The notes under the pieces were generated by a model. The model was given only the letters and a program-made list of their open reading frames with translations, was not told where the DNA came from and did no database searches. A stretch of DNA of 64,000 nt from assembly GCA_018303755.1 (NCBI GenBank), contig JAGVXO010000007.1, forward strand, positions 295-64,294. The letters run 5' to 3'. This stretch comes from Candidatus Pacearchaeota archaeon (GTDB lineage: Archaea; Nanobdellota; Nanobdellia; Pacearchaeales; GW2011-AR1). Position numbers and translations under genes: made by a program. Position 1 is the stretch's first letter, and the number at the start of each line of letters is the position of its first letter. This document shows positions 25,614 to 45,443 of this stretch, in pieces.

Positions 25614-25649
25614 CTTTATTTTATTATTAAATAACGAAGGGAGGGTTTA

Positions 25650-26023: not shown

Positions 26024-28285
26024 ATGGTTATGTTATTTAAAAAAGGGGCTGTGCTTTATTCATATGAAGTTCAGAGAGAGTCAGGAGAGAATGTTATTTA
26101 TGTAAACTATCTTGGAGCGCCTGATATTCCAAGCATCGCAAAATCTCCTGAAGTTATGACAAGAGCAATTGATTTATTTATTGAATCTCCTAATGCTTCG
26201 AGATTAGTATTAGTCCAGCAGAGAAATTACAGCTATAATTCAGAGCAGGTTGAAATGCTTGTTGAAATTGCACAATTATATACTTTTCTTTTAAAGCAGG
26301 AAAGAGTGCTTTCTCCAGAAATGTTGTCAAGTAATCCAAGGGAGTTATCATCAAGATATGCTTTTATGAATTATTTTATGACTATTTTAAGACAGAACCC
26401 ATTTTTAGCATACAGAAAGATTAAAAATGCCTTAATTGAAGAAAAATCAAAGAGTGGGCACGATATTCTTTACATTGGGCTTCTTGAAAAAATTGTTTCA
26501 TTACTCTTAAAAACAAAACTTATTTTAAAAATAGAAAAATATGCAGAGGATTATGCTTTTGAAAGCAGGGAAATATACGAAAAACTTTTTTCTCCAAATA
26601 TAATCCCTAATTATGCTTTTGCAAGGCTTGCTTCTGAGCTTCCGGAAAATGCGAAAATAATATCGCAATATGCTATTGGAAGTGGAGATGATAAAAGCAC
26701 AGTAACTATCTTAAAAAAAGAAAATGAATTAAAATATATTTATCATTTAATGCCTCCTGAATATTTTCTTAATGAGGATTTTCAGATGCTTCTTAATCTT
26801 GCGAGAAATGTTCTTATAGAGCACCAGCCAAAGGCAGAAGAGTTTACAGATACTGAAAGAACAAGGCAGGTTTTTTTTAATGTTGCGCGCGATTTATTGA
26901 GGGAGCTTGCAGAAGAAAAACATATAACTTTTTCTTATGAAGAGCTTGGCAAACTCGCGATGATTCTTGTAAGACATACAATTGGCTTTGGCTTGTTAGA
27001 GGTTCTTTTGCAGGACAGTAATTTGCAGGATATTGTTCTTAATGCTCCGATAAGCATGAATACAATTTTTGTAAGGCATGGAAAATATGATGAGTGTTCT
27101 ACGAATATTATTCTTAGCCAGGAAGATGGAGAATCGTGGGCCGCGAAATTCAGAATGATTTCAGGAAGGCCGCTTGATGAGGCAAATCCTGTTCTCGATA
27201 CTGATTTATTGATTGAAGGCGCGAGAGCAAGAGTTTCAATTGTGCAGAGGCCTTTATCTCCTCACGGACTTGCATATGCTGTAAGAAGACACAGAGATTA
27301 TCCTTGGACACTTCCTTTGTTTATTGAAAATAAAATGCTTAATCCATTTACTGCTGGATTATTAAGTTTTCTTATTGATGGGAGCAGGACACTTCTTGTG
27401 GCAGGAACAAGAAGCTCTGGAAAAACTTCGCTTCTTGGAGCTTTAATGCTTGAAATAAAACCAAAATATAGAATTATCCTTATAGAAGATACTCTTGAAA
27501 TTCCTGCAGATTATTTGAGAAAAATGGGTTATGATATTTTAAGTATGAAGGTGCGTTCTTCGCTGACTGAAACAAGCAACGAAGTTACAGCAGAAGAGGG
27601 AATAAGAACAAGTTTGAGATTAGGAGACAGCTCTTTAATTGTCGGCGAGATAAGAAGCAATGAAGCAAAAGCATTATATGAGGCAATGAGAGTAGGAGCA
27701 CTTGCAAATGTTGTTGCAGGAACGGTTCATGGAAACTCTCCTTATGGTGTTTTTGACAGAATTGTAAATGATTTGCAAGTTCCGATTACAAGTTTTAAAG
27801 CAACTGATTTAGTTCTTGTTGCAAATCCTGTTAAAAGTCCTGATGGATTACATTCTGCGAGGAGAGTTGTTCAATTAACAGAGGTAAGAAAGCACTGGAC
27901 AAAAGATCCTCTTGAAGAAAAAGGATTTGTTGATTTGGTTAATTATAATGTTGAGAAAGATGAATTAGAGCCGAGTGATGAATTGATTAACGGGAATTCT
28001 GAAGTTATAAAAGCAATTGCTTCAGGAGTTAAGGGATGGGCAGGAAACTGGGATGCTGTTTATGATAATATTATTTTAAGAGGGATGGTTAAACAGGAGC
28101 AGGTTGAATTAGCACATAGGTTGAACAGGCCAGAACTACTTGAGGCAAATTTTTCCCTTCTTGCAAATACTTTATTTCATAACATTTCTGAAGAAGTTAC
28201 AAAAGAGTTAGGATTTCCTGATTCCAAGATTGTTTTTCCTAAATGGAAAAAGGACGTTGAGAAACTTGCGCAGGATTTTTCTTAA
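26024..28285 (+). CDS. type IV pilus/archaellum-type secretion ATPase (GspE/FlaI/PilB family)
   Basis: Walker A VAGTRSSGKTS, Walker B IILIEDTLEI, downstream Asp/His boxes; large N-terminal domain. Confidence 0.75.
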   Translation: MVMLFKKGAVLYSYEVQRESGENVIYVNYLGAPDIPSIAKSPEVMTRAIDLFIESPNASRLVLVQQRNYSYNSEQVEMLVEIAQLYTFLLKQERVLSPEMLSSNPRELSSRYAFMNYFMTILRQNPFLAYRKIKNALIEEKSKSGHDILYIGLLEKIVSLLLKTKLILKIEKYAEDYAFESREIYEKLFSPNIIPNYAFARLASELPENAKIISQYAIGSGDDKSTVTILKKENELKYIYHLMPPEYFLNEDFQMLLNLARNVLIEHQPKAEEFTDTERTRQVFFNVARDLLRELAEEKHITFSYEELGKLAMILVRHTIGFGLLEVLLQDSNLQDIVLNAPISMNTIFVRHGKYDECSTNIILSQEDGESWAAKFRMISGRPLDEANPVLDTDLLIEGARARVSIVQRPLSPHGLAYAVRRHRDYPWTLPLFIENKMLNPFTAGLLSFLIDGSRTLLVAGTRSSGKTSLLGALMLEIKPKYRIILIEDTLEIPADYLRKMGYDILSMKVRSSLTETSNEVTAEEGIRTSLRLGDSSLIVGEIRSNEAKALYEAMRVGALANVVAGTVHGNSPYGVFDRIVNDLQVPITSFKATDLVLVANPVKSPDGLHSARRVVQLTEVRKHWTKDPLEEKGFVDLVNYNVEKDELEPSDELINGNSEVIKAIASGVKGWAGNWDAVYDNIILRGMVKQEQVELAHRLNRPELLEANFSLLANTLFHNISEEVTKELGFPDSKIVFPKWKKDVEKLAQDFS

Positions 28286-28292
28286 ATCTTAT

Positions 28293-28470
28293 TTTTAAAC
28301 ATCCCATAATTTTGCCTTATTTTTACATCTTTTCATTGAAGTCTTCTTTTTTATTTAATATCCCATTAAAAATCATAAAGTCTAATGAACAAATAGACGA
28401 CAGATTTGCAGAATAAAACAAGCGCGAAGCGCACTAATGTCGTTATTAATGTGAGCGAGCGAAAGATTTA
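28293..28470 (+). repeat. composite intergenic repeat R1
   Basis: aaacatcccataattttgccttatttttacatcttttcat...gacagatttgcagaataaaacaagcgcgaagcgcac...gtgagcgagcgaaag. Confidence 0.75.
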
Positions 28471-28489
28471 AATATCCATATACTTCTAT

Positions 28490-29095
28490 ATGATAAGGTG
28501 TATAAATATGTATGAAAATAAATATAAAAATGAGCCTCTTACGAGATTAGAAGATTTAGATATTCTTTTAAATCTTTTGGCAGATTTAAATGAGCCGTTG
28601 GAATTGTTTGCAATAGGAGGAACTGCAATGGTTTTAAAAAGAATTAAAGAATCTACAAAGGATATAGATTTTTTGACTGCTGAAAAATATGAGAAAATTA
28701 AAAAGCTATTTACTTTAGCAGGTTTAAAAGAAGAAAGTTCTAATAAACTTTGTAACATTTGGAAATTAGGCAATATTCGGATAGATATTTTTTATGATGG
28801 TTTTATTATGGGCATAAGATTTCCTGATGATTGGAGAAAGTTATCTGAAAAAGTAAAAGAAATTGGAAAAATTAAGCTATATATTCTTAATTGGTATGAT
28901 TTGATTATCACGAAAATTTCAAGGGCTGAGAAAAGAGATATTGAAGATATAATTGCAATAATAAAAAGCCAAAAGTTAGATTTTGGTTTTTTGAAAAAGA
29001 GATATTATTCTTTTGCCGAAACTGCACTTATTTCAGATTTTGATTATAAATTTAAACATTTGGAAAGGGAATATGCCAAGCGCAAAATTGATTAA
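28490..29095 (+). CDS. nucleotidyltransferase, paralog N2
   Basis: LFAIGGTAMVLK...DIDFLT NTase motif; same architecture as 23625 and 43554. Confidence 0.5.
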   Translation: MIRCINMYENKYKNEPLTRLEDLDILLNLLADLNEPLELFAIGGTAMVLKRIKESTKDIDFLTAEKYEKIKKLFTLAGLKEESSNKLCNIWKLGNIRIDIFYDGFIMGIRFPDDWRKLSEKVKEIGKIKLYILNWYDLIITKISRAEKRDIEDIIAIIKSQKLDFGFLKKRYYSFAETALISDFDYKFKHLEREYAKRKID

Positions 29096-29693
29096 GGCAC
29101 TTGAAAAAGAAGGCTTTTTTTTGGAGTTTCCAGAATATTATTCAAATGAAGAAATTGTTTTTGAGATATTAAAGGAGGACAATCCGAGAATAACTCTCTG
29201 CCTGCCGCTTTTTTTAAGAAAAGGAATAGATTACAAAACGATTTCCTCGAAATTAAATCCCAAAAAGAAAAAAGAATTAAATAGGGCAATTGCTATCAGT
29301 GATAAAATCTACAAAAAAGAAAAAATTGAGAATACTCTTTCAGGCATTATAAAACAAAATAGAATAAAAGTAAACTTCTCAGAACAGGAATTCAAAGAGT
29401 TTTATGATTCTTTTAAAGAGAGTCGAGCAAGATTAAAAGAAAATGAACAAAAAATTATTGAAAAGCAGTCTAAACTGCGGCTTAATCTTGATTTAAACAA
29501 ATGCATGTCTGTTTTATTTTCTCCAGCAAAGATAAAAATAATGGAGAAAATATTCAATCATAAACTGCTTACGAATACAGAATTAAAGTATTATTATAAA
29601 TCCATTTCAAATATAAACAAGGCAGTTTTAAATCCAAATTTGCAGGATTATTTAAGGATAATTGAGATTACGAAGAAGATTGCGGAGAAATGA
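29013..29693 (+). CDS. hypothetical protein, downstream partner of NTase N2
   Basis: overlaps the NTase gene 3' end; Lys-rich helical protein. Confidence 0.3.
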   Translation: MPKLHLFQILIINLNIWKGNMPSAKLIKALEKEGFFLEFPEYYSNEEIVFEILKEDNPRITLCLPLFLRKGIDYKTISSKLNPKKKKELNRAIAISDKIYKKEKIENTLSGIIKQNRIKVNFSEQEFKEFYDSFKESRARLKENEQKIIEKQSKLRLNLDLNKCMSVLFSPAKIKIMEKIFNHKLLTNTELKYYYKSISNINKAVLNPNLQDYLRIIEITKKIAEK

Positions 29694-29699
29694 GCGAGC

Positions 29700-29960
29700 T
29701 AAATTAATTATTCTAACATCCTATAATTTTGCCTTATTTTAAGTTTGTTCATTGGTGCTTTTTATTTATTGATTTAAAACATAATGTAAATTCCAATCTG
29801 CTCACGGGTTTAGGATTTACAAAATAAATAAGTGAGCGAAGCGAACCAAAATTGTGGGGCGAGCCCGCAGGGCGAGCCGATAATTCCATTATTCAAATAA
29901 AAAATCACAACCGAAATATTTATAACTCCCCCCCCCTTGGATTGTTAATCTTTCAATAAG
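29700..29960 (+). repeat. composite intergenic repeat R1 with promoter-like leader (9-C tract)
   Basis: taagtgagcgaagcgaaccaaaattgtggggcgagcccgcagggcgagccgataattccattattcaaataaaaaatcacaaccgaaatatttataactccccccccc. Confidence 0.8.
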
Positions 29961-30024
29961 TTTTTAACACGAAAAAGAAAGATTGAACTAAAATAAAAAA
30001 TAGTGATTGAAAGGAGGTGATAAA

Positions 30025-30831
30025 ATGAATAGAAATTTAGTGATTGGACTTTCTGTTACTTTAGTTGCTGTTTTAATTGCAGGAAGCTTGAGCGGATGGT
30101 TTGGATTGACTGGAAACGTAATTTGGGGAAGTTCTCCCTATGCTGATAAGATTGCAAAATTAGGGAAAACATATACTCTAAATTTAGAAGGGAGTAGTCA
30201 TACATTTTTAGTTACCGATTATCAGAGAGAAAATTCTACTTCTGTAGGGTTTATCTGGTTAAATGTGGATGGAGAACTAAAAAAGGTAAGTTATGGGACA
30301 TCTGCTGTTAGATTTTGGGATAATATTGACGTGCAGATTTTACAGTTTTACAATTGGGCAGGAAGTTTTGTTCAAATAAGGTTTTTTTATCTTTACCCTG
30401 AATATACTGATATGAATGATTGTAGGTGGGAATATAATACTTATGATAATGAGTATCTCCCAGAATCTCGGGCGGTAATTTGCAGATATGGTGAAGAAGT
30501 ATTAGTCTCAACCGAATTTGTCACTTGTGATACTCCAAGGTTGGTTGAAACATGGAACTATTGGTGGCCTGGATTTAAAGGTGCACCAACCTTTGGAAGA
30601 GGGTATACTTGTTATGACTCTTCTTCAAATACTGTTTTTAAGCCAGGGTATGTATCTGGAGTATGTTGTAAAGTAAGAAGTACAAATGGATCTCCAGGAG
30701 TAATCTCTTCATTGAAGTCTGGTGCTGAAAATGGAGAAATCTTGGCAAAGGTAAATCAATTGACTTCAGATAATAAAATAATAGAAAGAGATTTAACTTC
30801 TGAAGAAATAGAAGTGACTTTATCTGCTTAA
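30025..30831 (+). CDS. secreted protein (5' paralog of 15386..16540)
   Basis: identical SD and leader; N-terminal hydrophobic signal; Cys, Trp and Tyr-rich. Confidence 0.45.
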   Translation: MNRNLVIGLSVTLVAVLIAGSLSGWFGLTGNVIWGSSPYADKIAKLGKTYTLNLEGSSHTFLVTDYQRENSTSVGFIWLNVDGELKKVSYGTSAVRFWDNIDVQILQFYNWAGSFVQIRFFYLYPEYTDMNDCRWEYNTYDNEYLPESRAVICRYGEEVLVSTEFVTCDTPRLVETWNYWWPGFKGAPTFGRGYTCYDSSSNTVFKPGYVSGVCCKVRSTNGSPGVISSLKSGAENGEILAKVNQLTSDNKIIERDLTSEEIEVTLSA

Positions 30832-30913
30832 GCAATTTATTTTTTATTTTCTTTTTATTTTCTTTTTTCAATACCTTTATTAATTCTTTTTTTCTTATTT
30901 CTATAAGGAATAA

Positions 30914-33130
30914 GTGAAAGAGGGAATAATGGCGGATGTTAATGAGATTTTAAAAAAGTATGGGGGCAAGCTTTCAGAGGGGATTAATGAAGAGTATAAA
31001 TCCGGGGATATAAGCAAAGAGTATATACATTTCAAACAGGATATGATGCCACAGCTTTCAAGATATGAAAAGCTTGCAAAGACGTTTTCTCTTTTAAAAC
31101 TTAAAATGGGAAAAAAGAGCGAGGAGAGAATGAAGAAAAATCTTGATTCTGCGCATCTTGACTTGACTCCTTCTGATGTTGCGACTTTTTCTTTTTTTTC
31201 TGCAGTAATGGTTTTTATGCTCGGACTTGTAATTTATGTTGTTGTTTATATGAATACAGATGAACTTTCTGGCGCAAATGGATTATTTTTAGCGCTTATG
31301 TTTATTGCATCTCTTTTTGTTTTTTATTTTGTATATACCTCTCCTGAAAGAATGGCGAATATGTGGAGATTAAAAGCTGGTTCGCAAATGGTGCCGTGCA
31401 TACTTTATATTGTAGTTTATATGAAGCACACTTCAAATTTGGAAAGAGCAATACATTTTGCATCTCAGAATTTAAAAGCGCCTCTTTCGCTTGATTTGAA
31501 AAAGATTTTCTGGGATGTGGAAACTGGGAGATTCAGCACAATAAAAGAGAGTTTGGATAATTATCTTAAAACATGGGAAAAATACAGCATTGAATTTGTC
31601 GAGGCATTTCATCTTATTGAGAGCAGTTTGTATGAGTCGTCTGAATTAAGAAGAATTCAGATACTTGAAAAATCACTGCAGGTGATTCTTGACGGGGTTT
31701 ATGAAAAGATGCAGTCCTTTTCACGAGAAGTCCGCGGACCTTTGACAAATGTTTATATGCTGGGAGTTGTTCTGCCGACACTTGCGCTTGCACTTCTTCC
31801 TCTTGCTTCGACACTTTTAGGAGGAGTTATAAAAGTTTATCATGTGTTTATACTTTTCAATCTTATTGTTCCTTTTCTTGTGTTTTATATGACTAACAGC
31901 ATTATGCTTAAGCGTCCAGGAGGACATGGAGAGAGCGAGATTTTAGAAATGAATCCTGACTATCCTAAATATAAAAGCAAAAAACCATATTTTATTGCAG
32001 CATTATTTGCAGTTCCATTATTAATTATTGGCTTGATGCCATTGTTTTTTCAATGGGCTTGGTTTGTGCAGACATTTAATCTTGCTCCTGATTATAATCT
32101 TGGAGTTTTAGGCGGGAATTTTGAAGGAGCAGTTATGTTTGATTATAAAAATGCTGATTTAAGTTCTGGAAGCTCGATAATGACACTTGCAGAGCTTAAT
32201 TCTGCAAAAAATATTGCAGGGCCTTTTGGAATTGGCGCGCTTATTCTAAGCTTGTTTGTTCCTCTTTCTGTATGCCTTTTTTTTGCTATTTCTTTTTCTA
32301 TTAAAACAAAAGAGATGATAAAGGCAAGAAAAAATACACAGGAGCTTGAGAAAGAATTTACAAACTCGCTTTTTCAGCTTGGAAACAGGATTGGCGACGG
32401 GCTTCCTGCTGAAGTTGCATTTGCAAGAGTTGCAGAATCAACACGCGGACAGAGAACAGCAGAATTTTTTAGAAAGGTGAATCTTAATCTTCAGCAGTCA
32501 GGAATGTCACTTGAAAACTCTATTTTTCATCCGCGCAATGGGGCAATAATCTTCTTTCCATCACAGCTTATTGCTACGAGTATGAAAATTCTTGTTGAAT
32601 CAGTCAAGAAAGGGCTGAAAATTGCAGCACAGAGTTTAATGAGTATTTCAGAATATCTGAAAAATATAAATAAAGTTGAAGACAGGATGAAGGATTTGCT
32701 TGCAGAGGTTACAAGTGATATGAAAAGCAATATGGTATTTTTGGCGCCTCTTCTTGCAGGAATTGTTGTCGGACTTGCTGGTATGATTACTTCTATAATA
32801 AACAAACTGACTCTTCTAATAGATTCTATGGCTTCTGGACAGGAGATTCCCGGATTTGGAAATATTTCAAATATTGTAAATCTCTTTGAAATAACTAAAA
32901 TGGTTCCGCCTTATTATCTGCAGATTGCAATAGGAATTTATCTTATCGAGATTATTTTTATTCTTACAAAGGTTCTTGTTACAATTGATTCAGGAGAGGA
33001 CAAGTTAAGCACAACAAACAGAATTGGAAAGAATCTTTACACGGGATTATTCCTTTATTTTGTTGTGACTCTTGCAGCAGTCATTACTCTTTATATTCTT
33101 GCAACTGTTTCTTTGGGCGCGATTGGGTGA
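30914..33130 (+). CDS. type IV pilus platform membrane protein (FlaJ/TadC/GspF-like)
   Basis: 738 aa, multiple TM helices in two clusters separated by cytoplasmic domains; immediately downstream of the ATPase locus. Confidence 0.55.
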   Translation: MKEGIMADVNEILKKYGGKLSEGINEEYKSGDISKEYIHFKQDMMPQLSRYEKLAKTFSLLKLKMGKKSEERMKKNLDSAHLDLTPSDVATFSFFSAVMVFMLGLVIYVVVYMNTDELSGANGLFLALMFIASLFVFYFVYTSPERMANMWRLKAGSQMVPCILYIVVYMKHTSNLERAIHFASQNLKAPLSLDLKKIFWDVETGRFSTIKESLDNYLKTWEKYSIEFVEAFHLIESSLYESSELRRIQILEKSLQVILDGVYEKMQSFSREVRGPLTNVYMLGVVLPTLALALLPLASTLLGGVIKVYHVFILFNLIVPFLVFYMTNSIMLKRPGGHGESEILEMNPDYPKYKSKKPYFIAALFAVPLLIIGLMPLFFQWAWFVQTFNLAPDYNLGVLGGNFEGAVMFDYKNADLSSGSSIMTLAELNSAKNIAGPFGIGALILSLFVPLSVCLFFAISFSIKTKEMIKARKNTQELEKEFTNSLFQLGNRIGDGLPAEVAFARVAESTRGQRTAEFFRKVNLNLQQSGMSLENSIFHPRNGAIIFFPSQLIATSMKILVESVKKGLKIAAQSLMSISEYLKNINKVEDRMKDLLAEVTSDMKSNMVFLAPLLAGIVVGLAGMITSIINKLTLLIDSMASGQEIPGFGNISNIVNLFEITKMVPPYYLQIAIGIYLIEIIFILTKVLVTIDSGEDKLSTTNRIGKNLYTGLFLYFVVTLAAVITLYILATVSLGAIG

Positions 33131-33139
33131 TTTTTTCTG

Positions 33140-33545
33140 TTATTTTCTTTAAACACACTATAACTTTTCCTTATTTAACATCTTTTCATCTCACTTTTTT
33201 CTTAATATTATTAAAACAATCCAAAGGACAAATGTATCAATGGAGTCAGATTTGCAGAATAAAATAGGCGAGGCGAAGCCGAGCACAATATTTATTTTGT
33301 TAATATCCAATAATTTTCCCACATTTTACATCTTTTTAATTGCCTTTTTATTTTTTTAATTAGATTTTGATTTAATGCATTTAAACTTTATAAAAACCAA
33401 TGTATCAACGGATTAGGGGTTAGCAGAATAAAACGCGCGCCCGCAGGCGCGCGTTATCTCTCTATTAAACGAGCGAGGCGGAGCCGAGCGAAAATCGTGG
33501 GGTCGCAGGGCGAGCGAACCGAAGGTGAGCGAGCCGTTATACTCT
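33140..33545 (+). repeat. composite intergenic repeat R1, about 2 tandem units, with a perfect GC hairpin
   Basis: two A-blocks (33148-, 33300-) and GC blocks (33265-33290; 33430-33540); hairpin gcgcgcc-cgca-ggcgcgc at 33435-33452. Confidence 0.75.
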
Positions 33546-33605
33546 TCAGAAAGCCGTAGTTTAATTCAGAGATACATTTATTAATTATTCTTTGTTAATT
33601 GAATT

Positions 33606-33770
33606 ATGGTGGAAAGAGAGGATAAACGGGGCTTTGAAATGGATTTTCTTGCGTGGACTTTGCTTGCAATTGCAACTGTTGCAGTTGTTGTGATTATTTA
33701 TCTGGGCATTATCGGAAGACTTGATGGAATAGTTGAATATATAAAAAATGTTTTTACTTTTGGAATATGA
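33606..33770 (+). CDS. small type IV pilin-like protein (class III signal peptide)
   Basis: 54-aa ORF absent from the track: MVEREDKRG|FEMDFLAWTLLAIATVAVVVIIYLGI; ATGA overlap with the next gene. Confidence 0.5.
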   Translation: MVEREDKRGFEMDFLAWTLLAIATVAVVVIIYLGIIGRLDGIVEYIKNVFTFGI

Positions 33771-35065
33771 GGAAACTAAGTAAATCCGGAAAAAGAGGAG
33801 AGTTATCAAGCGACAAATTGCTTACAGTAATTCTTATTATAGTAACTTTGGCACTTGCATTTTATTTTTTGTTTGTGAGAAGCGAAATTAAAAGCCTGAT
33901 TAATATTTTTCCAGATTATACTCCAGGAGGAAATAACGAGATTGTTGTTGAAGAGGGAAGCCAGGTTGACAGCAACTGTGTAAATATTGGTGCTGTGCAA
34001 GTTGATAAAAGTAATTCTAAAGAATATCTTGTTGCAGTCAAACAGAATTTACAGAGTGATAGTTATAACTACCTTGGATTAAAGTATGATGAAAGTACAG
34101 AAACAATAATTTATCCAGTTAAATATTACAGCAAGCATAAAGGGTTTTCAGATATAACTGTTGGAAAAATTGAAGATTCAATAAATAAAGATGGAGAGAA
34201 AGAGAAAAGATTTATTGCAGATAAAAATATGTTTGATGCAAATTCCTTTATTCAAAGCCAAATTGCATTTCAACACGTTTTATCAGGGGTTATAAATCCT
34301 GAAGTTAAACAACAGGGGCTTGCTTATCAGTTATGGACTCTAAATAATGCAAAAGTTTCTTTGAAAGCAGTTTCATCTGATAATGTTTTATTCTTTTTGT
34401 GCAAGAGCAAAGATGAAATTAAGCCCTTGGAATATGTTCCAAGCAAAGTTGATGAAAATGCGCGGGTTTTGAGTTTGAAAGAAATTAATCCAAAATCAAT
34501 TCCAAGTAAGGGAACTATTTGGAATTTGTGGAATTTATTTTCACCTGGAAATCTTTTAGGATATGAAATTGTTTTGCCTTATGATGTTCATTCTAGGGGG
34601 GTTAGAGAATTATCTCAAGAGGATTTAAATTGGGTTAGGAATTATAAAATGTATAAAATTGAGAACTATCTTTTTGTAGGATATACGGATATTCCAGACT
34701 ATATGGCTGAACAATTTGCAAGGAAAGGGATTGGGTTTGATTTTAATGCTGCCACAGTTAGCAATTATTTTCCATTTACTAAGAGTTTTGTGCCTGTTGC
34801 ATTTATATTTCCTGACGGTTCTGTTTGGTTTTATAAAAGTTATTATGATGTTTTTATTGATGAATATAAAGTGATTATTAATGAAAATTTCTTTCTTAAA
34901 GGGGGTTATGCTCCTCACAAAACATTTTCTGGAGATATTGACTATCATTTTGGTTTTGAACCTGAACCAGGTGAAAAATATGGATTTCCTCGTGACTTTG
35001 TAAAATCAAATCTCCGCATAAGCCCTGAGGATTTTAAACTTCTGCATGATGGAATTGGAAAATGA
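33767..35065 (+). CDS. pilin-like protein with class III signal peptide (large)
   Basis: MRKLSKSGKRG|ELSSDKLLTVILIIVTLALAF. Confidence 0.5.
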   Translation: MRKLSKSGKRGELSSDKLLTVILIIVTLALAFYFLFVRSEIKSLINIFPDYTPGGNNEIVVEEGSQVDSNCVNIGAVQVDKSNSKEYLVAVKQNLQSDSYNYLGLKYDESTETIIYPVKYYSKHKGFSDITVGKIEDSINKDGEKEKRFIADKNMFDANSFIQSQIAFQHVLSGVINPEVKQQGLAYQLWTLNNAKVSLKAVSSDNVLFFLCKSKDEIKPLEYVPSKVDENARVLSLKEINPKSIPSKGTIWNLWNLFSPGNLLGYEIVLPYDVHSRGVRELSQEDLNWVRNYKMYKIENYLFVGYTDIPDYMAEQFARKGIGFDFNAATVSNYFPFTKSFVPVAFIFPDGSVWFYKSYYDVFIDEYKVIINENFFLKGGYAPHKTFSGDIDYHFGFEPEPGEKYGFPRDFVKSNLRISPEDFKLLHDGIGK

Positions 35066-35766
35066 GGGAAATAAAATTTGATAGTGATAAAATGAAAAAA
35101 GGAAAATTTAAATTTGGTAATGGTGAAATAAGTAAAAAAGATAGAGGGGATAAAAAAGCAATTCTCCTGCCAGAGGCGCTGAAGATAATTATTGCACTTG
35201 CGTGCCTTGTTCTGCTGGGTTATCTTGCAGTCGATTTGTATTCTTTATTTGCGTCTGCAAACCAAAAACAGCAGGTAAAAGTTCATCTTGATAATCTCAT
35301 TGAACTTTCAAATACAATCAAAGATGGTGAAAGCAAGGAATATGTGCTTATTTATCCTAAGGGATGGGCATTGACAAGCTGGCCTGCAAAAGGATATATT
35401 GAAACTCACCCTCCAACAAGGGTTGGCAATGAGTATATTTCTGGAGACATAGAGCAGATTCCTTATGGAGAAGAAGATGTTCCGGCAATTTGCAAGCAAA
35501 GCAACTGGAAGAGATGCATTTGTTTTTGTGAATGGAGTAACAGCAAAAATTATCTTCTTTGGTGTGAAGGTGAAAATACTATTTGTGACAGTGCTGAAGG
35601 AAAAGAGATTTTTGTAAATCCGCAATTAGATGATAAATTTAGGGATGGATACAGGAATTATTTAGTTATAGCTGATCTTGTTGATATGAAAACATCAGTA
35701 GTTTTATCTGCAAAAGATAATCAGATAACAATTAAACCTTCTGGTAAACCTGCAAAAATTGAATAA
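35062..35766 (+). CDS. pilin-like protein with class III signal peptide
   Basis: ...RGDKKA|ILLPEALKIIIALACLVLLGYLAV; Cys-rich C-terminal domain. Confidence 0.45.
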   Translation: MREIKFDSDKMKKGKFKFGNGEISKKDRGDKKAILLPEALKIIIALACLVLLGYLAVDLYSLFASANQKQQVKVHLDNLIELSNTIKDGESKEYVLIYPKGWALTSWPAKGYIETHPPTRVGNEYISGDIEQIPYGEEDVPAICKQSNWKRCICFCEWSNSKNYLLWCEGENTICDSAEGKEIFVNPQLDDKFRDGYRNYLVIADLVDMKTSVVLSAKDNQITIKPSGKPAKIE

Positions 35767-35929
35767 ATTAATAATGGAGAATAAAAATGCCTGAAAATCT
35801 GCCAATGGAAAATGTTGTGAGAATTTTATTCTGGATAATTTTGTTTATTTTTCTTGGGATAGGGGTTTATCTGATTTATAAAGGACTGACGAACGTATAA
35901 TATAAAAACTCTATTTTATTTGTTTTATA

Positions 35930-36976
35930 ATGGTGCAAAATACCAAGAAAAGAGGCGAGATTTCAATGTCTTTTGTTGCAGGAATTGTTCTTCTGCTTAT
36001 TGGCTTTGGAATTTTATTTTTATTTTATCAGTCTTTGTATAAAGCAGTTGACATTAATAGAACTGCGTGCCATACTTCTGTTATTGGAAGGGCAACGCTT
36101 CCTGCTCTGGCACAGGGATATGTTCCTCTTAAATGCACAACTGCAAAAATATGCATTACTGGAAAGAAAAGCGAGAAATGTGAAGAATTTCTTAACAGCG
36201 AAAGCGTTACAACTGCAGTAGTCAAAAATAGTCCAGAAGGAATTAATCAGATACAGGCAATTTATGCAAATGAAATTATAAGTTGCTGGGCAGCAATGGG
36301 AGAGGGCAGAGTTGATGTTTTTCCTGATTATGTTCAATCACAATTAGGGCTTGGAAATAATGAGCCTGGATGTGTAATCTGCTCGAGGATTGCAATAGAT
36401 AAAGATAGTTTAAATCAGGTGGATTTTTCTAAAATGGACCTTGTCAAATATATGGATAGTCATACTCTTCCTGGAAAAAAAGAGACTTATGTAGAGTATC
36501 TTTCTAAAAATAAAAATGCAGCGCCTGTAAGAATTGGAGAGGATGTACAAATTGTTGATGCAGAAGGAAATATTATTGATAGTGATGATAAATGGAATAA
36601 TAATAAAGAAGCTGAATACGAAGAAACAGCAATTTTATTTGCTCAGCTTAGTGATACTCCTGGCTATTTTGAGGGTCCTTTAAATGGTTTAAAGACTATT
36701 TTTAAGGGAGCTACTATTTCAACAGTTATTTCTCCTTTGGCTACTGTTTATATTGGAAAGACGATTATAACCGAACCTCTCGCATGGGTAGCGATTTTGG
36801 TTGCAGGAGGATATCAAGAATATTCAATTTATAAAAATCGTGCATTCAGCGCAGGATATTGCGGGGATGTTCAGTCAGCAGATAAAGATAAAACTGGGTG
36901 CTCTGCTATTAGAACCGTGCATTATAATGCTCCAGAGATATTAGAGTATTGTGGCACGATTGAAAGTATAGGATAG
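35930..36976 (+). CDS. pilin-like protein with class III signal peptide
   Basis: MVQNTKKRG|EISMSFVAGIVLLLIGFGILF. Confidence 0.5.
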   Translation: MVQNTKKRGEISMSFVAGIVLLLIGFGILFLFYQSLYKAVDINRTACHTSVIGRATLPALAQGYVPLKCTTAKICITGKKSEKCEEFLNSESVTTAVVKNSPEGINQIQAIYANEIISCWAAMGEGRVDVFPDYVQSQLGLGNNEPGCVICSRIAIDKDSLNQVDFSKMDLVKYMDSHTLPGKKETYVEYLSKNKNAAPVRIGEDVQIVDAEGNIIDSDDKWNNNKEAEYEETAILFAQLSDTPGYFEGPLNGLKTIFKGATISTVISPLATVYIGKTIITEPLAWVAILVAGGYQEYSIYKNRAFSAGYCGDVQSADKDKTGCSAIRTVHYNAPEILEYCGTIESIG

Positions 36977-37000
36977 TTATAAATTTTAATTTGTTGTGAA

Positions 37001-37447
37001 ATGAATAAAAAAGGTGAAGAGTTGGTTATTGAACAGGTTATTTTTATAGTTTTGAATATCGTGTTTGTGGGTTTGCTTTTAGCATTTGCTTATAAGACAT
37101 CATCTTCTGCATTTACTTTTGAGCAGAGATATGCAAAAGAAATCGCGCTTCTTATTGACAGCACAGCAGACAATTCTGCACTGAAATTAGATGTTACAGA
37201 AGCATATGAAATTGCCAAAAAAAATAATATTCCAAAAGAGGAGATGATTGTTATTTCTGACAAAGAGGTTATTTTAAAACTTTCTGGAGAAAAAGGATAT
37301 GCTTATCCATATTTTCATAAAGTGAGCATAGATAAAATTGGCGGAATTTCTTATGAAGATAAAAAAGAGGATTCTGGAAATGAGCGAGTTTTTGTCAATA
37401 TAATTCTTGGAAATGCCGGAGGAGAAAATGAGAATGGTCAAGATTAA
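37001..37447 (+). CDS. pilin-like protein with class III signal peptide
   Basis: MNKKG|EELVIEQVIFIVLNIVFVGLLLAFAY. Confidence 0.5.
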   Translation: MNKKGEELVIEQVIFIVLNIVFVGLLLAFAYKTSSSAFTFEQRYAKEIALLIDSTADNSALKLDVTEAYEIAKKNNIPKEEMIVISDKEVILKLSGEKGYAYPYFHKVSIDKIGGISYEDKKEDSGNERVFVNIILGNAGGENENGQD

Positions 37448-37928
37448 TGGAAAAAGAGCAAATTTGCTTTCTGCGTGGTGGATACTTGTGATTATTATAA
37501 TTGGCAGCGGGCTCGTTGCAGGAACACTGTTATTCTTTTTCAATTATGCAAATGTCTCTCTTGCAGAATCAGAGATTTTGGCAAATAATCTTGCAAGATG
37601 TATTTTTGAAAAATCTGTGAATGCAAACGAAGTTTTAGATGAAAATACAGATTTTCTTAATGAGTGCAGTATTAATTCTGAGTTATTCACAGGAAGTTCA
37701 CGTTATTTTGTAAAGATAAATGTAGATTACTCTGATTCTGAAAGAACAGATTTTGTTAAAAAGTATGGTGCAAATGCCTATGAAAAGGATTGCGAAATAA
37801 CACATGCAAAAATAAAGACAAAATATTTCTCCCAGTGTGATATTAAAAAGATAAAAGTACCTGATGAAAAAGGCGGAGCTGATGTTGAAATTACTGCCTC
37901 TTCTAAATCTTCTGGGAGGCAGATATGA
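37434..37928 (+). CDS. pilin-like protein with class III signal peptide
   Basis: MVKINGKRA|NLLSAWWILVIIIIGSGLVAG (ATG 37434 overlaps upstream stop; track start 37407). Confidence 0.5.
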   Translation: MVKINGKRANLLSAWWILVIIIIGSGLVAGTLLFFFNYANVSLAESEILANNLARCIFEKSVNANEVLDENTDFLNECSINSELFTGSSRYFVKINVDYSDSERTDFVKKYGANAYEKDCEITHAKIKTKYFSQCDIKKIKVPDEKGGADVEITASSKSSGRQI

Positions 37929-38560
37929 TAAGAAGCTTGATTAAAAATACGAGAGCACAAGTAGGAGACACTTTAACATGGATAGGCGTGACCATATTAA
38001 TAGTTTTTATAATGATGATTTTTTTGGCAGGAGTTGGATTTTTGTCATCTAAAAAATCAAGTGCTGAAGATGTGAGAGTTTATCCTGCTTCAGAGGAAAT
38101 TTTAATTGGGGATTATGAAACTGACTTGGTTATGATGAATTTTTTTCAGGAGCATAAAAAAGAGATTTTTGAGTGGGTAGATAATGCGCCGAGTTTTAAA
38201 TCTGCTGAAAATATGGAGGATTATTTTAATTTGCAGGATAATAGAGATAAGTATAAACTTTATGATAATTTAGGCAAGGCGTATGCAGGATTTATTTCTG
38301 ACAAAGGATTAGGAACACCGTATTTTTATATAAGAACTTCGGATAAAGAAATGTGGGCTATTTCAGAAGTTTTGAATCTGGAATTAAAATGGCTTTCAAA
38401 TAACAGAGAAAATATTTTTTTATTTAATTTTCAGCCAGGCTATGCTTACTCCTCAGGCACTGATTTGAATGCTCCGCGTTTTTTTGTTGTCACAGACAAA
38501 GGAACTCTTGCAATGATTGTTTTTGATTATGAAAGGGCGGGGAGGGTTGTTACAGGATGA
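37925..38560 (+). CDS. pilin-like protein with class III signal peptide
   Basis: MIRSLIKNTRA|QVGDTLTWIGVTILIVFIMMIFLAGVGFL. Confidence 0.5.
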   Translation: MIRSLIKNTRAQVGDTLTWIGVTILIVFIMMIFLAGVGFLSSKKSSAEDVRVYPASEEILIGDYETDLVMMNFFQEHKKEIFEWVDNAPSFKSAENMEDYFNLQDNRDKYKLYDNLGKAYAGFISDKGLGTPYFYIRTSDKEMWAISEVLNLELKWLSNNRENIFLFNFQPGYAYSSGTDLNAPRFFVVTDKGTLAMIVFDYERAGRVVTG

Positions 38561-39099
38561 GCAGAGAGTTGTTAAAACAGAATAAAAAAGCAATGTCTAT
38601 TCCTTCAACACTTTTGGTATTTCTTGCTTTGTTTCTGGTTGTGACTTTTTTGTTTTATTTTTCAGCAGAAAATGCGAAAAGCGTGAAAAATATTATTTAT
38701 TCTGTTAAATTAACTTCAGATTTATATGAAAGAACAAATTTGATTACATTTTATGTTCAGGATGCTTTGGAAAGAGGCGTGAACTCTGTTGATGTTTCTG
38801 CGAATAATAAAGAAGAATTAATTGCTGAGAAAATGAAGGAAACCCTTGATAAATATAGGTATCCTGACGGGATACTTATTTTTCCAGAATTTGAAAAAAT
38901 TATTGGGCAGATAAGCGCAGAGAAGATTGTTATAATAAATGGTGTTGATGGAACTCCTGAAAAAGCAGAGATTGAACTTGAGATAAGCGCAAAGGGAGGA
39001 ATAAATAGTGGAATAGGAGATAATTATAAAGAAATTGCAAGTGTGGAGAATTTTTATAAAAAGAAATTCAGCACTGAATTTCTTAAAGCGGGCAAATAG
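38557..39099 (+). CDS. pilin-like protein with class III signal peptide
   Basis: ...LKQNKKA|MSIPSTLLVFLALFLVVTFLFYF. Confidence 0.5.
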   Translation: MSRELLKQNKKAMSIPSTLLVFLALFLVVTFLFYFSAENAKSVKNIIYSVKLTSDLYERTNLITFYVQDALERGVNSVDVSANNKEELIAEKMKETLDKYRYPDGILIFPEFEKIIGQISAEKIVIINGVDGTPEKAEIELEISAKGGINSGIGDNYKEIASVENFYKKKFSTEFLKAGK

Positions 39100-39159
39100 G
39101 ATTTATAAATAGGTTGAGAAACATTTATAAATATAATCCCACTTAATAAATAATAAAAG

Positions 39160-39660
39160 ATGGTGAAAATGAATAAAAAAGCGCAGGAGACATCTCTTCT
39201 TGTCTGGATTGTCGGAATTGCTGCTGTTGTTATAATTATCATATTCCTTGCAGGAGGATTTGGATTTTTAGGGGATATATTTAATGTAGCTCCTGGAAAA
39301 GCACTTGAAGTAAGATTGGAAGCATGCAAGCTTGCAGTTAATACAAATAATCCCACTTCATTCTGCAGATTTGATTTAATAAAAGTCCCTGGATACAGCA
39401 ATGAGATTTATGTAAATTGTGAGTTTAGTGATTTGGCTTCAGGATTAGCAGAAAATCCTGATGTGGATACAACTGCATTGACAGAAATTAAAAAAAGCTG
39501 TGTAAATTCTGATGTAGAACTTTGCATAAGAAATTATAAGGACGATATGGATAAATTTACTAAGATAATTATTAATGGAAAGACTTGTGAAAAGACAAAT
39601 AATGGTTTAGAATTTGGCGGTGTTTGTGACTTAGATGCGAAAACTTGTGGAAACCCTTAA
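39160..39660 (+). CDS. pilin-like protein with class III signal peptide, Cys-rich
   Basis: MVKMNKKA|QETSLLVWIVGIAAVVIIIIFLAGG; 9 Cys in the ectodomain. Confidence 0.5.
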   Translation: MVKMNKKAQETSLLVWIVGIAAVVIIIIFLAGGFGFLGDIFNVAPGKALEVRLEACKLAVNTNNPTSFCRFDLIKVPGYSNEIYVNCEFSDLASGLAENPDVDTTALTEIKKSCVNSDVELCIRNYKDDMDKFTKIIINGKTCEKTNNGLEFGGVCDLDAKTCGNP

Positions 39661-39860
39661 AATTTTAAAATAACTTTAAAAACAATCTTTTCTTTAATAT
39701 TAAAATGTCAGACGACTACGGCTTTGAAGGAAAGAGAACAACAAAAAAGGATTTGAAGAGAAAGCGCAAGGCGCGAGTGTATAAAAGAGGTGGGCAGAAT
39801 AGGGTTGATGAAAAGAGATGGTGATTTTTGGGATATTGCTTTTTTATAATTCTTTTATTC

Positions 39861-40838
39861 TCACTTCGCCTTCGGCATGTTTTCTATTATCGTCACTAAG
39901 ATTGTAAGTATTAACGGGCCTATTATTAGTCCAATTATTCCAAAGAGTTTTATTCCTCCAATTATTCCAAACAGCATTATTGCAGGATGTGTTCCTGTTT
40001 TCTTGCTTAGTATTCTCGCGCGAAGAAGGTTGTCAATAAATAAGCTTAGAGTTATGCCCAATCCAATTATTCCTGCAGCTGCGAAATATTGTCCATAAAT
40101 TATTTTAATTATTGCAAGAGGAACCCAGATAATTGCAGGTCCGAGCGCAGGAATAAATGCGAGTATTCCTATTGCAAATGCAAGCACAAGATAAGCATCA
40201 ATTCCAAGAAGCTTGAAAACAACTGCACTTAGGATTATTTCTATTAATGCAATAAGGCATGTCCCCATTATTATATTCGATACCCTTTTCTTTATTTTAT
40301 CAACAATTTCTACTTTATTTTTAAATGGCAGTATATTGATAATTGCCTTTTCTATTTTATCCCAGTCAATTAAAAGATAATATGCAGTGAAAATTATTAT
40401 GAACAAATGAAGGATAAAAGAGGGAATGTAGCTTATTGTTTGAGGTATCAGGCTTATGAAATATTCCCCTATTCTAGAGATTATTGCTTCAAGATTATTA
40501 TTTATCAAAGGAATTTTGCTGATTTTTGATAGGCCTTCAAGTATAGCAGAGATATTGACAGGATTTAGGAATTTTGATAGCTGATTAATAAATGCTCCTG
40601 CAAAGGCGACGATAAATCCAATAATTATGGCTATTGCAAGGGAAATTATTGAAAATGCAGATATTCTTTTAGGTATTTTTTTAGAAAGTTTATCATGAAA
40701 GGGTTTAAGTGCATAGGCGAGAATTGCTCCAGTAATAATTGCAATAAGCATTTCATTAAGTATAAGATAAGAAAGTATAATCACTCCTGCAATTATACTC
40801 CAGAAGACATATTTTTTTGTCTGTTCGCTTTTCTCCAT
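39861..40838 (-). CDS. AI-2E family transporter (PerM/UPF0118)
   Basis: 8-TM architecture and sequence pattern (ITGAILAYALKPF...) typical of the AI-2E family. Confidence 0.55.
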   Translation of the reverse strand: MEKSEQTKKYVFWSIIAGVIILSYLILNEMLIAIITGAILAYALKPFHDKLSKKIPKRISAFSIISLAIAIIIGFIVAFAGAFINQLSKFLNPVNISAILEGLSKISKIPLINNNLEAIISRIGEYFISLIPQTISYIPSFILHLFIIIFTAYYLLIDWDKIEKAIINILPFKNKVEIVDKIKKRVSNIIMGTCLIALIEIILSAVVFKLLGIDAYLVLAFAIGILAFIPALGPAIIWVPLAIIKIIYGQYFAAAGIIGLGITLSLFIDNLLRARILSKKTGTHPAIMLFGIIGGIKLFGIIGLIIGPLILTILVTIIENMPKAK

Positions 40839-40899
40839 TTCTGCCTCTTTATAATTCTAATTTAAAAACATTAATAAAGCTTTTTGTTTAGGTTATAAT

Positions 40900-41763
40900 A
40901 TGGATATGTTTTTGGCAGTGCTTGGAATTGTGTGGATAGCTGCTGCAGTGATTCAGGACTTGAAATCACGCGAAGTTGCAAACTGGATAAATTTCAGCTT
41001 AGTTATTTTTGCACTTGCATACAGGTCATTTTACTGGATTTTTTCAGGAGAGCAGATGTTTTTTTTGTCTGGAATTTTAGGACTTGCAATTTTTTTTATA
41101 GTAGCACATCTCTTTTATTATCTTCGGCTTTTTGCAGGAGGAGATGCAAAATTGCTGATTGCGCTTGGGGCAATTCTTCCCACAGCAGGAGGATATTATG
41201 AAAATGCGCTGATAATGCTGTTTTTTATTCTTGTGCTTCTTGCAGGAGGGGGGGTATATTCGTTCTGTTACAGCATTCTTCTTTCTTTTATTTCGTGGAA
41301 TAAATTTTTAAAAGAATTCAAGGTTCAGGTAAGAAAGAATGCATTTTATTTGGTGATTGCTGCGATTGTTTCTGCAGTTCTTGCAACTTTTTCTATGTTT
41401 AGCGGAGATTTTGTTTCTGCTCTTGCCTCTGTTTTAATAATTCTTATTTCTGCACTTTATGTTTATGTAAAAGCAGTTGAAAGTGCGTGCCTTATTTATG
41501 AAGTTTCTCCTGATAAACTTTCTGAAGGTGATTGGCTGGCATCTGAATTGATTGTTAAAGGAAGAAAAATAAACCCTTTCTGGGAAGGAATTAGTCAAGA
41601 AGAAATAGAGTTTATTAAAAAGAATTATAAAAGCAAGGTAAAGATAAAAGGAGGAGTTCCATTTACTCCTGCATTTTTGATTGCATTTATTGCAGTTCTT
41701 TATGTAAGTTATTTTGTTGGTTTTGATTTTATGCTTGAAAGGCTGATGAGGTTTATTGCATAA
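40900..41763 (+). CDS. prepilin/prearchaellin peptidase (A24 family, PibD/FlaK-like)
   Basis: first catalytic Asp in TM1 context (AAVIQDLKSREVANWIN) and second in the AGGDAKLLIALG (GxGD-like) motif; polytopic. Confidence 0.65.
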   Translation: MDMFLAVLGIVWIAAAVIQDLKSREVANWINFSLVIFALAYRSFYWIFSGEQMFFLSGILGLAIFFIVAHLFYYLRLFAGGDAKLLIALGAILPTAGGYYENALIMLFFILVLLAGGGVYSFCYSILLSFISWNKFLKEFKVQVRKNAFYLVIAAIVSAVLATFSMFSGDFVSALASVLIILISALYVYVKAVESACLIYEVSPDKLSEGDWLASELIVKGRKINPFWEGISQEEIEFIKKNYKSKVKIKGGVPFTPAFLIAFIAVLYVSYFVGFDFMLERLMRFIA

Positions 41764-41799
41764 ATGCCCGCTCTGCTCATTCATCATTATTATTTCTTA

Positions 41800-41960
41800 A
41801 ATTTTACTCCATGAGAACATTGGGTATTCATATATTTTAATTCATATTAAAAATAAAGAGGATATAAAAGATAAACACCAATGAACAAACTTAAAATTAG
41901 GGAAAAGAATGGAGTGATAGCAAAATGTTGTTCATTTGCCTATGGCAGAAAGCAATAAGT
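41800..41960 (-). repeat. composite intergenic repeat R1 (minus orientation, partial)
   Basis: reverse complement: attttgctatcactccattcttttccctaattttaagtttgttcattggtgtttatcttt. Confidence 0.55.
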
Positions 41961-41989: not shown

Positions 41990-42745
41990 ATGAAATTCGT
42001 GCATAAAGTGTCAAAAGGAAGCAGGTTTAATCAGATATACATTCCAAAAGAATTTGAAAATCATTTTGAAGTCGGAGATTTGGTGCAGGTGGAATTGCTG
42101 GAAAAAAATACAAAACTTTATTATTCTAAAAAAATAGAATTAAGTAGTTTTAAAAAAAGAATTATCCAAGAAATATTCAGTTGCCTTAACAACTTAAAAT
42201 CTATAAGCCAGATATTTGTTTTTGGCTCTTTTATTACAAAAAAAGCAGATTATAATGACATTGATCTTATAATCATTTCCGACATAATAACTGAAAAACA
42301 GGTTTATACCCTGCTATTGGAAAAATTAGAATTGAAATTCCACATTTTAATGATTCCAGAATCTAAATTAAAAGAACTTGAAAAAATATGTCCTTTGACA
42401 AGAAGTATGCTGTATTACAGCATTTCAAACAAGCCATTTTTCCTGGAAAAAGAGAGGGTTATTGACAAAAACCACATAAATTTTCTTTTAATGATGCCAG
42501 AAGATATACTTAAACTTAATGTAGATGGAAAAACAATTTACAATGCTCTAAGAAGATTAGAAACAATAGAGAATTTTCTTAATAACAAAGAAGAAAATCC
42601 TAGAAAAATAGAAAAAGATGTAGAAAAATTAATAGGAGAGAAAATATCATGCAAATTAAAAGAAAACACTCCTCTTGCACAAGAAGAAACAAAAAGATTA
42701 AATGAGATTATCAAATCCAAATTAGTAAAAATCAGGAAAAAATAA
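41990..42745 (+). CDS. nucleotidyltransferase (Pol-beta superfamily)
   Basis: IFVFGSFITKKADYNDIDLIIIS = GSx9-11 DxD motif. Confidence 0.55.
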   Translation: MKFVHKVSKGSRFNQIYIPKEFENHFEVGDLVQVELLEKNTKLYYSKKIELSSFKKRIIQEIFSCLNNLKSISQIFVFGSFITKKADYNDIDLIIISDIITEKQVYTLLLEKLELKFHILMIPESKLKELEKICPLTRSMLYYSISNKPFFLEKERVIDKNHINFLLMMPEDILKLNVDGKTIYNALRRLETIENFLNNKEENPRKIEKDVEKLIGEKISCKLKENTPLAQEETKRLNEIIKSKLVKIRKK

Positions 42746-45333: not shown

Positions 45334-45443
45334 TTTAAATACTTAACTCTTTTTTTAAACATTCAATAGATGTATAGCATAAGACATTAATTATTCCCCA
45401 AGATTTATATACCCCTTATCTTTGTTTATTGGGAGGTAAAAAT

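Follow-up and report, generated by a model that had tools for sequence, protein, structure and literature searches.

Two conserved loci resembling type IV pilus gene clusters have been reported across cluster-2 DPANN archaea, Pacearchaeota, Woesearchaeota and Nanoarchaeota among them (Hamm et al. 2024, Nat Commun 15:6449, PMC11291902). Their products include CpaF, TadC and filament proteins, and next to these are encoded coiled-coil proteins (CCPs), which the authors compare to viral attachment proteins. Proteomics revealed several of the products in Ca. Nanohaloarchaeum antarcticus, not in Pacearchaeota. That account deals mainly with Nanohaloarchaeota and does not go into the pilin array of Pacearchaeota. 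Such an array, with the machinery around it, is the subject here. It lies in a stretch of 64,000 nucleotides (nt) of a Candidatus Pacearchaeota genome (assembly GCA_018303755.1, contig JAGVXO010000007.1, positions 295 to 64,294), which as a whole is called the window, and comprises an ATPase gene, a platform gene, nine pilin-like genes (p1 to p9) and a peptidase gene, with two coiled-coil genes, cc1 and cc2, upstream. The system is of a kind already reported, a well-preserved example that fits the description of Hamm et al. 2024: the taxa are the same, the ATPase is of the CpaF type, the platform of the TadC type, there are filament proteins, and coiled-coil genes (one or two) adjoin the CpaF- and TadC-type genes, in DNA of Pacearchaeota origin. 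I consider it likely that these genes code for an archaeal type IV filament machine in the style of Tad and Epd, belonging to a Pacearchaeota (DPANN) cell.

Another described system that bears comparison is the Epd pilus of Methanococcus maripaludis, which is encoded by an 11-gene cluster and whose major pilin lacks a globular domain (bioRxiv 10.64898/2026.04.22.720090). The same preprint reports that some DPANN have system 1 (Epd-like) and subsystem 4A. The 2016 census of archaeal type IV pili (Makarova et al., PMC4858521) predates the genomes considered here. The locus resembles Epd and system 1 in being a multi-gene cluster with many class III proteins, a peptidase of its own and a small putative pilin, p1, that has no globular domain. 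It differs in that system 1 has two platform genes (EpdJ and EpdK), whereas here there is a single one of 733 amino acids (aa), and in that EpdA is a peptidase of the form with nine transmembrane (TM) helices, while that of the window is the shorter FlaK/PibD-like form with about six.

The likeness to bacterial Tad/Flp systems lies in the ATPase, for which TadA is the best NCBIfam model and CpaF the second-best solved relative, in there being a single ATPase and a dedicated A24 peptidase, and in a very short putative pilin whose processing site is of the G↓xxx[DE]Y type (the arrow marks the predicted cleavage). Unlike those systems, the locus has no outer-membrane secretin and no TadZ, TadD or TadG, and one fused platform with nine TM helices takes the place of TadB and TadC, so that neither the TadB and TadC pair of Tad systems nor the EpdJ and EpdK pair of Epd is present. 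The Flp cleavage motif is G↓xxxxEY. In p1 the acidic-aromatic pair stands one residue nearer to the cleavage site, and p1 has no Pfam match to Flp.

A preliminary description of the window, drawn from its letters, had put here a complete type IV pilus-like system other than an archaellum, in a DPANN-like organism: a GspE/FlaI-type ATPase (26024–28285), a FlaJ/TadC-like polytopic platform (30914–33130), nine consecutive genes with class III signals, several of them Cys-rich, and an A24 prepilin peptidase with both catalytic Asp residues (40900–41763). All of the open reading frames (ORFs) that it named are present where it placed them, and each of these assignments holds up below, that of the platform through its fold and transitive T2SSF homology rather than through direct family models. 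The organism was judged rightly as well, since the nearest relatives of both ATPase and platform come from metagenome-assembled genomes (MAGs) labelled Pacearchaeota, Woesearchaeota or Nanoarchaeota; the best identities are 74% for the ATPase, to Pacearchaeota MAGs, and 69% for the platform.

The ATPase matches T2SSE in Pfam (4e-15), and its best NCBIfam models are TadA (2e-38) and FlaI (5e-37). Because both scores fall far below the curated cut-offs, it is a member of the superfamily and not an equivalog of TadA or FlaI. Among sequences in the PDB it matches Archaeoglobus GspE (afGspE, 2e-31) better than CpaF (4e-24) and CpaF better than FlaI (4e-14). The four motifs of the GspE/TadA/FlaI/VirB11 superfamily, to which the secretion ATPases of archaeal type IV filament systems belong, are intact: Walker A (GTRSSGKT, at residue 461), the Asp box (488), Walker B (538) and the His box (567). 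The match to afGspE spans residues 207–602, leaving about 200 extra residues at the N-terminus and about 150 at the C-terminus. These extensions are conserved, because relatives align across residues 3–752. Subsystem-specific terminal domains are reported to be common in the non-archaellum ATPases of archaea (bioRxiv 10.64898/2026.04.22.720090).

The platform, for which about nine hydrophobic TM helices are predicted, is harder to place. Direct assignment was attempted with Pfam, NCBIfam and PDB sequence profiles and gave nothing significant; a profile of the family likewise found no significant match when set against PDB sequences, and T2SSF was touched by only one of 27 family members (E = 0.028). 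The matter was settled by a fold search and by transitive homology. A profile search of 1.8 billion representatives returned 1213 family members, and distant full-length members align with the platform from end to end at 25–28% identity (E 1e-65 to 1e-81). These same homologues match Pfam T2SSF, the best of them with 30.4 bits, against a gathering threshold of 25.2, in both its N- and its C-terminal half. By its predicted fold and by these chained alignments, the platform is a FlaJ/TadC-like protein of the T2SSF superfamily, strongly diverged in sequence: a polytopic protein with T2SSF cytoplasmic domains, as archaeal type IV filament systems possess. Few surface-structure gene sets of the clade are as conserved as this locus: its platform family alone forms 1213 clusters at 50% identity.

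The nine ORFs that follow (33606–39660) all pass a loose scan that asks for [KR][GA] and, after it, a hydrophobic segment 16 aa or more in length. Their motifs are the same that the preliminary description had listed, and each has a single N-terminal TM helix. Under a stricter class III rule, 8 of 8 array ORFs pass, compared with 3 of the 76 other non-overlapping ORFs of the window (Fisher p = 3.8e-9). The 54-aa p1, which passes the loose scan, was left out of the stricter test by a filter on ORF overlap, and one of the three passes outside the array is an artefact of an upstream TTG start. As a pattern match, then, the array supplies the class III substrates of an archaeal type IV filament system. 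Several of its genes share 4 nt with their neighbours, as is seen where translation is coupled within an operon. There are 7 Cys in p3, 10 in p4, 4 in p6 and 8 in p9. Among 366 pilin-like ORFs from related loci, position −3 is K in 82% and position −4 is N in 55%. Neither position was selected by the scan, so their conservation supports one common processing site, NKK[G/A].

The smallest member, p1, heads the array in nearly all relatives, where its consensus is KKG↓xxx[DE]Y...IDxIKNLFR. In architecture and cleavage motif it is similar to major pilins of the Flp/EpdE type, with no sequence match to Flp, and by analogy it is the candidate for the major filament subunit. No match to Pfam pilin or Flp families was found for its family (18 members) at E ≤ 10. 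A profile of the family set against PDB and Pfam matched only designed helical proteins; the likeness to Flp is thus architectural only. The alternative candidate for the major subunit is p5, whose separate homologue search gave 5 matches, too few for a model. The second gene, p2, is a singleton in clustering, and relatives hold unrelated large proteins in its slot, which makes it a candidate adhesin; an apparent split of p2 in one assembly turned out to be a scaffold gap of 10 N and not variation. All ten Cys of p4 are invariant in its family, and its structural model, of moderate confidence (predicted local distance difference test 61.5), matches no known fold. An apparent paralogy of p4, p5 and p8 was an artefact of single-linkage clustering through one bridging protein, and they are three separate families.

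Could these proteins be displayed at the surface without a long filament? In such a bindosome-like or pseudopilus arrangement, the ATPase and platform would set class III-anchored proteins into a short envelope structure, the large subunits acting as receptors or binding proteins. In Sulfolobus, substrates other than pilins are known to bear class III signals (PMC4858521), the ATPase also obtains a score with the model of the Sulfolobus bindosome ATPase BasE (2e-18), and most of the nine proteins are large (148–432 aa) with ectodomains unlike those of pilins. The BasE score, however, is far below those of TadA and FlaI, and none of the nine proteins has a solute-binding-protein domain. A conserved minimal p1 makes sense as the building block of a filament, and the small and large subunits stand in a fixed order much as in pilus operons. 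Display without a filament seems to me quite unlikely.

The peptidase matches Pfam Peptidase_A24 (2.3e-12) and the NCBIfam FlaK model (1e-12). Its residues D20 and D82, the latter within AGGD, align onto both catalytic Asp residues of FlaK (3s0x), which gives it the two-Asp arrangement, with the second Asp in a GxGD-type motif, of the A24 peptidases in archaeal type IV filament systems. The gene follows the pilin array in at least 26 related loci; since many loci break off ahead of it, the true number may be higher.

Peptidase and ATPase invite the thought of a divergent archaellum, that is, a rotary filament for motility. The ATPase, platform superfamily and peptidase are homologous to FlaI/ArlI, FlaJ/ArlJ and FlaK, and the FlaI and FlaK models do score. 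They score poorly, with 128 bits for FlaI against a curated cut-off of 550 and 48 bits for FlaK against 330, and the sequence of the ATPase is nearer to afGspE and CpaF than to FlaI. The ATPase has extra terminal domains, which are atypical of archaellum ATPases at either end (bioRxiv 10.64898/2026.04.22.720090). Nor is there any match to archaellin (Arch_flagellin), FlaF/G, FlaH or FlaC/D/E/X in the pilin-like genes, cc1, cc2 or the neighbours scanned (not every ORF of the window was scanned), in agreement with the preliminary description, which had reported no archaellum accessory genes. Since no archaellum-specific component occurs in the array or in those neighbours, a role in motility is unlikely, and an archaellum I regard as very improbable.

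How far the layout is shared can be judged from 80 related genomes or loci of Pacearchaeota, Woesearchaeota and Nanoarchaeota, with ATPases 62–74% identical. The order common to them is cc1 (−), cc2 (−), ATPase (+), a gap, platform (+), pilin array (+) and A24 peptidase. There is one single platform gene here and in 65 of the 80 relatives, and beside the ATPase cc1 is found in 71 and cc2 in 73. Within the arrays the families, too, keep an order: a small p1-like gene, a variable large one, then p3-, p4-, p5-, p6- and p7-like genes, and after them more variable ones. A gene for an AI-2E transporter (39861–40838, −) was considered as a part of the system and rejected, since just 3 of 80 relatives have it there.

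The preliminary description had called the array unusually long, and this did not survive the comparison. Between platform and peptidase the relatives carry 3 to 11 class III ORFs, with a median of 8, and the Epd cluster of Methanococcus has 11 genes. The norm of the clade is seven to eleven such genes in a fixed order, and nine genes, plus one, therefore conform to it. The additional gene, missed at first although all nine that were counted exist, encodes a 37-aa protein with one TM helix. Its orthologues at the same position in relatives have an NKK[GA] leader; the copy in the window has none.

Several results weigh against a type IV filament machine at this locus. There is no second (retraction) ATPase in the window. 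None of the nine pilin-like proteins matches the Pfam pilin or archaellin families (Pilin_N, Class_IIIsignal, Arch_flagellin, Flp_Fap, TadE) at E ≤ 1, and none of 60 sampled relatives of these proteins matches Pfam pilin, archaellin, Flp or TadE at E ≤ 0.05. Pfam T2SSF is blind to the platform itself, for which a direct search of Pfam and NCBIfam models yielded nothing, and hhalign of its N-terminal against its C-terminal half detected no internal duplication, the alignment being too shallow to be informative (effective number of sequences 1.8). Finally, the ATPase, the platform and the pilin array are separate transcription units, split by cargo and repeats. The array subunits, to judge by their sequences, are pilin-like in N-terminal design and lie outside the described pilin families. 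Pili in these lineages are probably under-counted by automated surveys, since neither the platform nor any of the pilins is recognized by the usual domain models.

The sequences establish what the four core parts are, the signal motif common to the array and the conservation of gene order. I propose that the machine works as follows, inferring cleavage, filament formation, the major subunit and the biological role. The nine class III precursors would insert into the membrane by their N-terminal hydrophobic helix, and the A24 peptidase (Asp20/Asp82) would cut the short basic leader after NKK[G/A]. A hexamer of the CpaF/afGspE-like ATPase would dock onto the 9-TM platform at its two T2SSF-like cytoplasmic domains, which are helical bundles, and ATP hydrolysis would lift the cleaved subunits from the membrane and add them to a helical filament. 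The bulk of that filament would most likely be p1, about 45 aa long and without a globular domain, or alternatively the 148-aa p5. The larger and partly Cys-rich p2, p3, p4, p6, p7, p8 and p9 would be minor pilins that prime assembly, or tip adhesins, and cc1 and cc2 would probably be accessory or regulatory partners of the ATPase.

Such a filament would most probably serve to attach the cell to a host cell or to a surface. This proposal of adhesion or host contact is the most economical one, being in keeping with large subunits that are conserved and Cys-rich, with the variable slot and with an episymbiotic lifestyle. Type IV-like pili are required for natural transformation in Methanococcus and Methanothermobacter, and CpaF is able to power both extension and retraction. 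If the same machine served mainly in the uptake of DNA or nutrients, then a short dynamic pilus would bring extracellular DNA to the surface, which would suit a nucleotide-auxotrophic organism, and the core machinery would be no different. DPANN genomes and those of the candidate phyla radiation often pair pilin-like genes with competence genes (PMC9938205). Yet neither ComEC nor DprA nor a DNA-binding component was found in or beside the locus (among the neighbours scanned; the pilin-like proteins were not searched for DNA-binding motifs), and the Cys-rich, variable large subunits look more like adhesins. Uptake as the main function is an unlikely alternative to attachment.

A bolder idea, which I put forward tentatively and think rather doubtful, is that the locus represents a distinct and unclassified subsystem of type IV filaments in Pacearchaeota and Woesearchaeota, building a minimal Tad/Epd-like filament as their main organelle of host contact. 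The features that may set it apart are a fused platform of nine TM helices and about 730 aa, unseen by current Pfam and NCBIfam models; clade-specific terminal domains of the ATPase; two cytoplasmic coiled-coil partners; and new pilin families in a set order, the first of them a micro-pilin of about 45 aa that has no globular domain. Both phyla consist of host-dependent archaea that are abundant and uncultured, and the locus may bear on how they make contact with their hosts. It offers handles for experiments in the NKK[G/A] motif, in p1 as the candidate bulk subunit and in p3 and p4 as Cys-rich adhesin candidates, and the variable slot p2 might track host range.

Table 1. The pilus locus, its inserts and the repeat copies in the window. 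The starts of the platform, p6 and p9 are those of public gene calls.
Feature	Position	Strand	Description and evidence
cc1	24343–25182	−	Coiled-coil protein, apparently cytoplasmic, 279–285 aa; heptads; divergent from ATPase; Gln/Pro/Tyr-rich middle
cc2	25182–25613	−	Second coiled-coil protein, apparently cytoplasmic, 143 aa; heptad segment at residues 38–89
Assembly ATPase	26024–28285	+	753 aa; TadA/CpaF/afGspE/FlaI superfamily; T2SSE, NCBIfam and PDB matches; motifs
Cassette	28286–29900	+	Variable cargo, not a machine part: repeat copy (28286–28489), DUF6036 nucleotidyltransferase (28508–29095), 206-aa partner (29073–29693), repeat copy (29694–29900)
268-aa protein	30025–30831	+	Variable cargo, predicted secreted or membrane-anchored; 6 Cys; one N-terminal hydrophobic helix
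Platform	30929–33130	+	733 aa (738 aa as ORF from GTG 30914); about 9 TM; diverged GspF/PilC/TadC/FlaJ (T2SSF) member by predicted fold and transitive homology
p1	33606–33770	+	Putative prepilin, 54 aa, about 45 aa mature; no globular domain; KRG↓FEMDF and one TM helix
p2	33767–35065	+	Class III protein, 432 aa; variable slot of the array; KRG↓ELS and TM
p3	35062–35766	+	Class III protein, 234 aa; 7 Cys; conserved family, in 39 related loci
Tenth array gene	35787–35900	+	37-aa single-TM micro-protein; called in public assemblies; synteny
p4	35930–36976	+	Class III protein, 348 aa; ten invariant Cys; conserved minor pilin or adhesin candidate
p5	37001–37447	+	Class III protein, 148 aa; conserved family, 41 homologues among related loci; NKKG↓EEL
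p6	37434–37928	+	Class III protein, 164 aa (173 aa as ORF from TTG 37407); 4 Cys; family in 37 loci
p7	37925–38560	+	Class III protein, 211 aa; TRA↓QVG and TM; family in 19 loci
p8	38557–39099	+	Class III protein, 180 aa; NKKA↓MSI and TM; 3 homologues at E ≤ 1e-5
p9	39169–39660	+	Class III protein, 163 aa (166 aa as ORF from 39160); 8 Cys; NKKA↓QET and TM
Prepilin peptidase	40900–41763	+	A24, FlaK/PibD type, 287 aa, about 6 TM; Peptidase_A24, FlaK model, 3s0x alignment
Repeat copies	28286–28489, 29694–29900, 33131–33285, 33280–33470, 4830–5000, 21410–21600		Intergenic repeat family
Repeat copies, reverse	41790–41935, 25614–25790 (partial)	−	Intergenic repeat family

The two coiled-coil genes upstream are probable accessory components. 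In architecture and position they correspond to the CCPs of Hamm et al. 2024 (NAR1_03220 and NAR1_01690). Unlike the proteins that were likened to viral attachment proteins, cc1 and cc2 look cytoplasmic, because neither has a signal peptide or a TM helix as far as the sequence can be read. Heptad periodicity in cc1 occupies residues 197–261 (24 windows, against a shuffle mean of 0.5). The signal in cc2 is weak, the shuffle maximum exceeding the observed count. No match to either was found in Pfam, NCBIfam or PDB sequences, and the notion that they might be FlaC/D/E was dropped for want of such matches. The N-terminal segment of cc1 appears UBA-like by eye (unconfirmed), and the protein has a long low-complexity region rich in Gln, Pro and Tyr.

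Between ATPase and platform the relatives have a gap of 63–2992 bp, filled with cargo that is unrelated from one genome to the next. Judged by eye from N-termini, it consists of what look like toxin-antitoxin pairs of the PIN/AbrB type, nucleotidyltransferase pairs and a membrane protein of about 340 aa that recurs, and the gap looks like a hotspot for cargo of the toxin-antitoxin or nucleotidyltransferase type. In the window it holds a cassette and the gene for a 268-aa protein that has no homologue at the same position in relatives. The cassette was rightly described at the outset as a nucleotidyltransferase flanked by repeats (R1): the enzyme matches Pfam DUF6036 (1.5e-19), and the cores of the flanking repeats are at 28298 and 29715. 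Many assemblies of groundwater metagenomes contain the locus in near-identical form. One metagenome assembly of the same population, otherwise 99.7% identical, lacks the 1417-bp cassette, with the junction inside the shared core (28298–29740; loci L083 and L094). The polymorphism in its presence is probably genuine and suggests deletion or insertion of the cassette through the repeats. An assembly artefact is the alternative, the stretch shared exactly being no longer than about 18 nt.

Nucleotidyltransferase-type genes also stand on either side of the locus: besides the one in the cassette there are those at 23625–24326 (Pfam NTP_transf_5/DUF6036), at 41990–42745 (a weak MntA-type NCBIfam match) and at 43554–44120 (no NCBIfam match in a scan of NCBIfam only).

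The preliminary description had taken the gene for the 268-aa protein to be phase-variable, for which the support is weak. A C9 tract (29928–29936) lies about 90 nt upstream of the start codon at 30025, directly after a TATA-like TTTATAA, and its length does vary slightly: of ten assemblies, eight have C9, one has C8 and one has AC7. It lies upstream of the gene and not in it, and sequencing error could explain so small a variation. A promoter-like element of about 130 nt with poly-C is common to this gene and to that starting at 15386, where the tract is C7 (15309–15315). The two genes are unrelated, encode secreted, Cys-containing proteins and have an identical Shine-Dalgarno sequence, GGAGGTGAT.

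The repeats that flank the cassette belong to an intergenic family of about 170–190 nt with at least eight copies in the window and no match in Rfam. Their conserved cores are AACATCCNATAATTTTNCCTTATTTT, CCAATGTAYCAATGGA, AGATTTGCAGAATAAA and GCGAGCGAAGCGAAC. One copy follows the ATPase, one the cassette, two the platform and one, inverted, the peptidase, so that copies separate the transcription units of the pilus locus; others are elsewhere in the window. They could be promoter or terminator modules, elements like miniature inverted-repeat transposable elements, or genes for small RNAs. Scans of the window for tRNA genes and Rfam families returned no match, and its G+C content is about 32%, that is, AT-rich.

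Outside the locus, a 151-aa protein (6046–6501, −) has a class III-like N-terminus, DKKA↓ISNIVV..., and judging from that segment may be a further substrate of the A24 peptidase; its gene lies beside a weakly Peptidase_M64-like one (6489–7616). Two genes contain inteins: a DEAD/Helicase_C helicase (16617–19760, −) is split by one with a LAGLIDADG domain, and a RadA/Rad51 recombinase (57834–61832, +) has two intein splicing domains and LAGLIDADG homing-endonuclease domains. At 45429–46437 a helix-turn-helix gene is followed by a DDE_3 endonuclease gene, the two being probably an insertion-sequence transposase in two parts.

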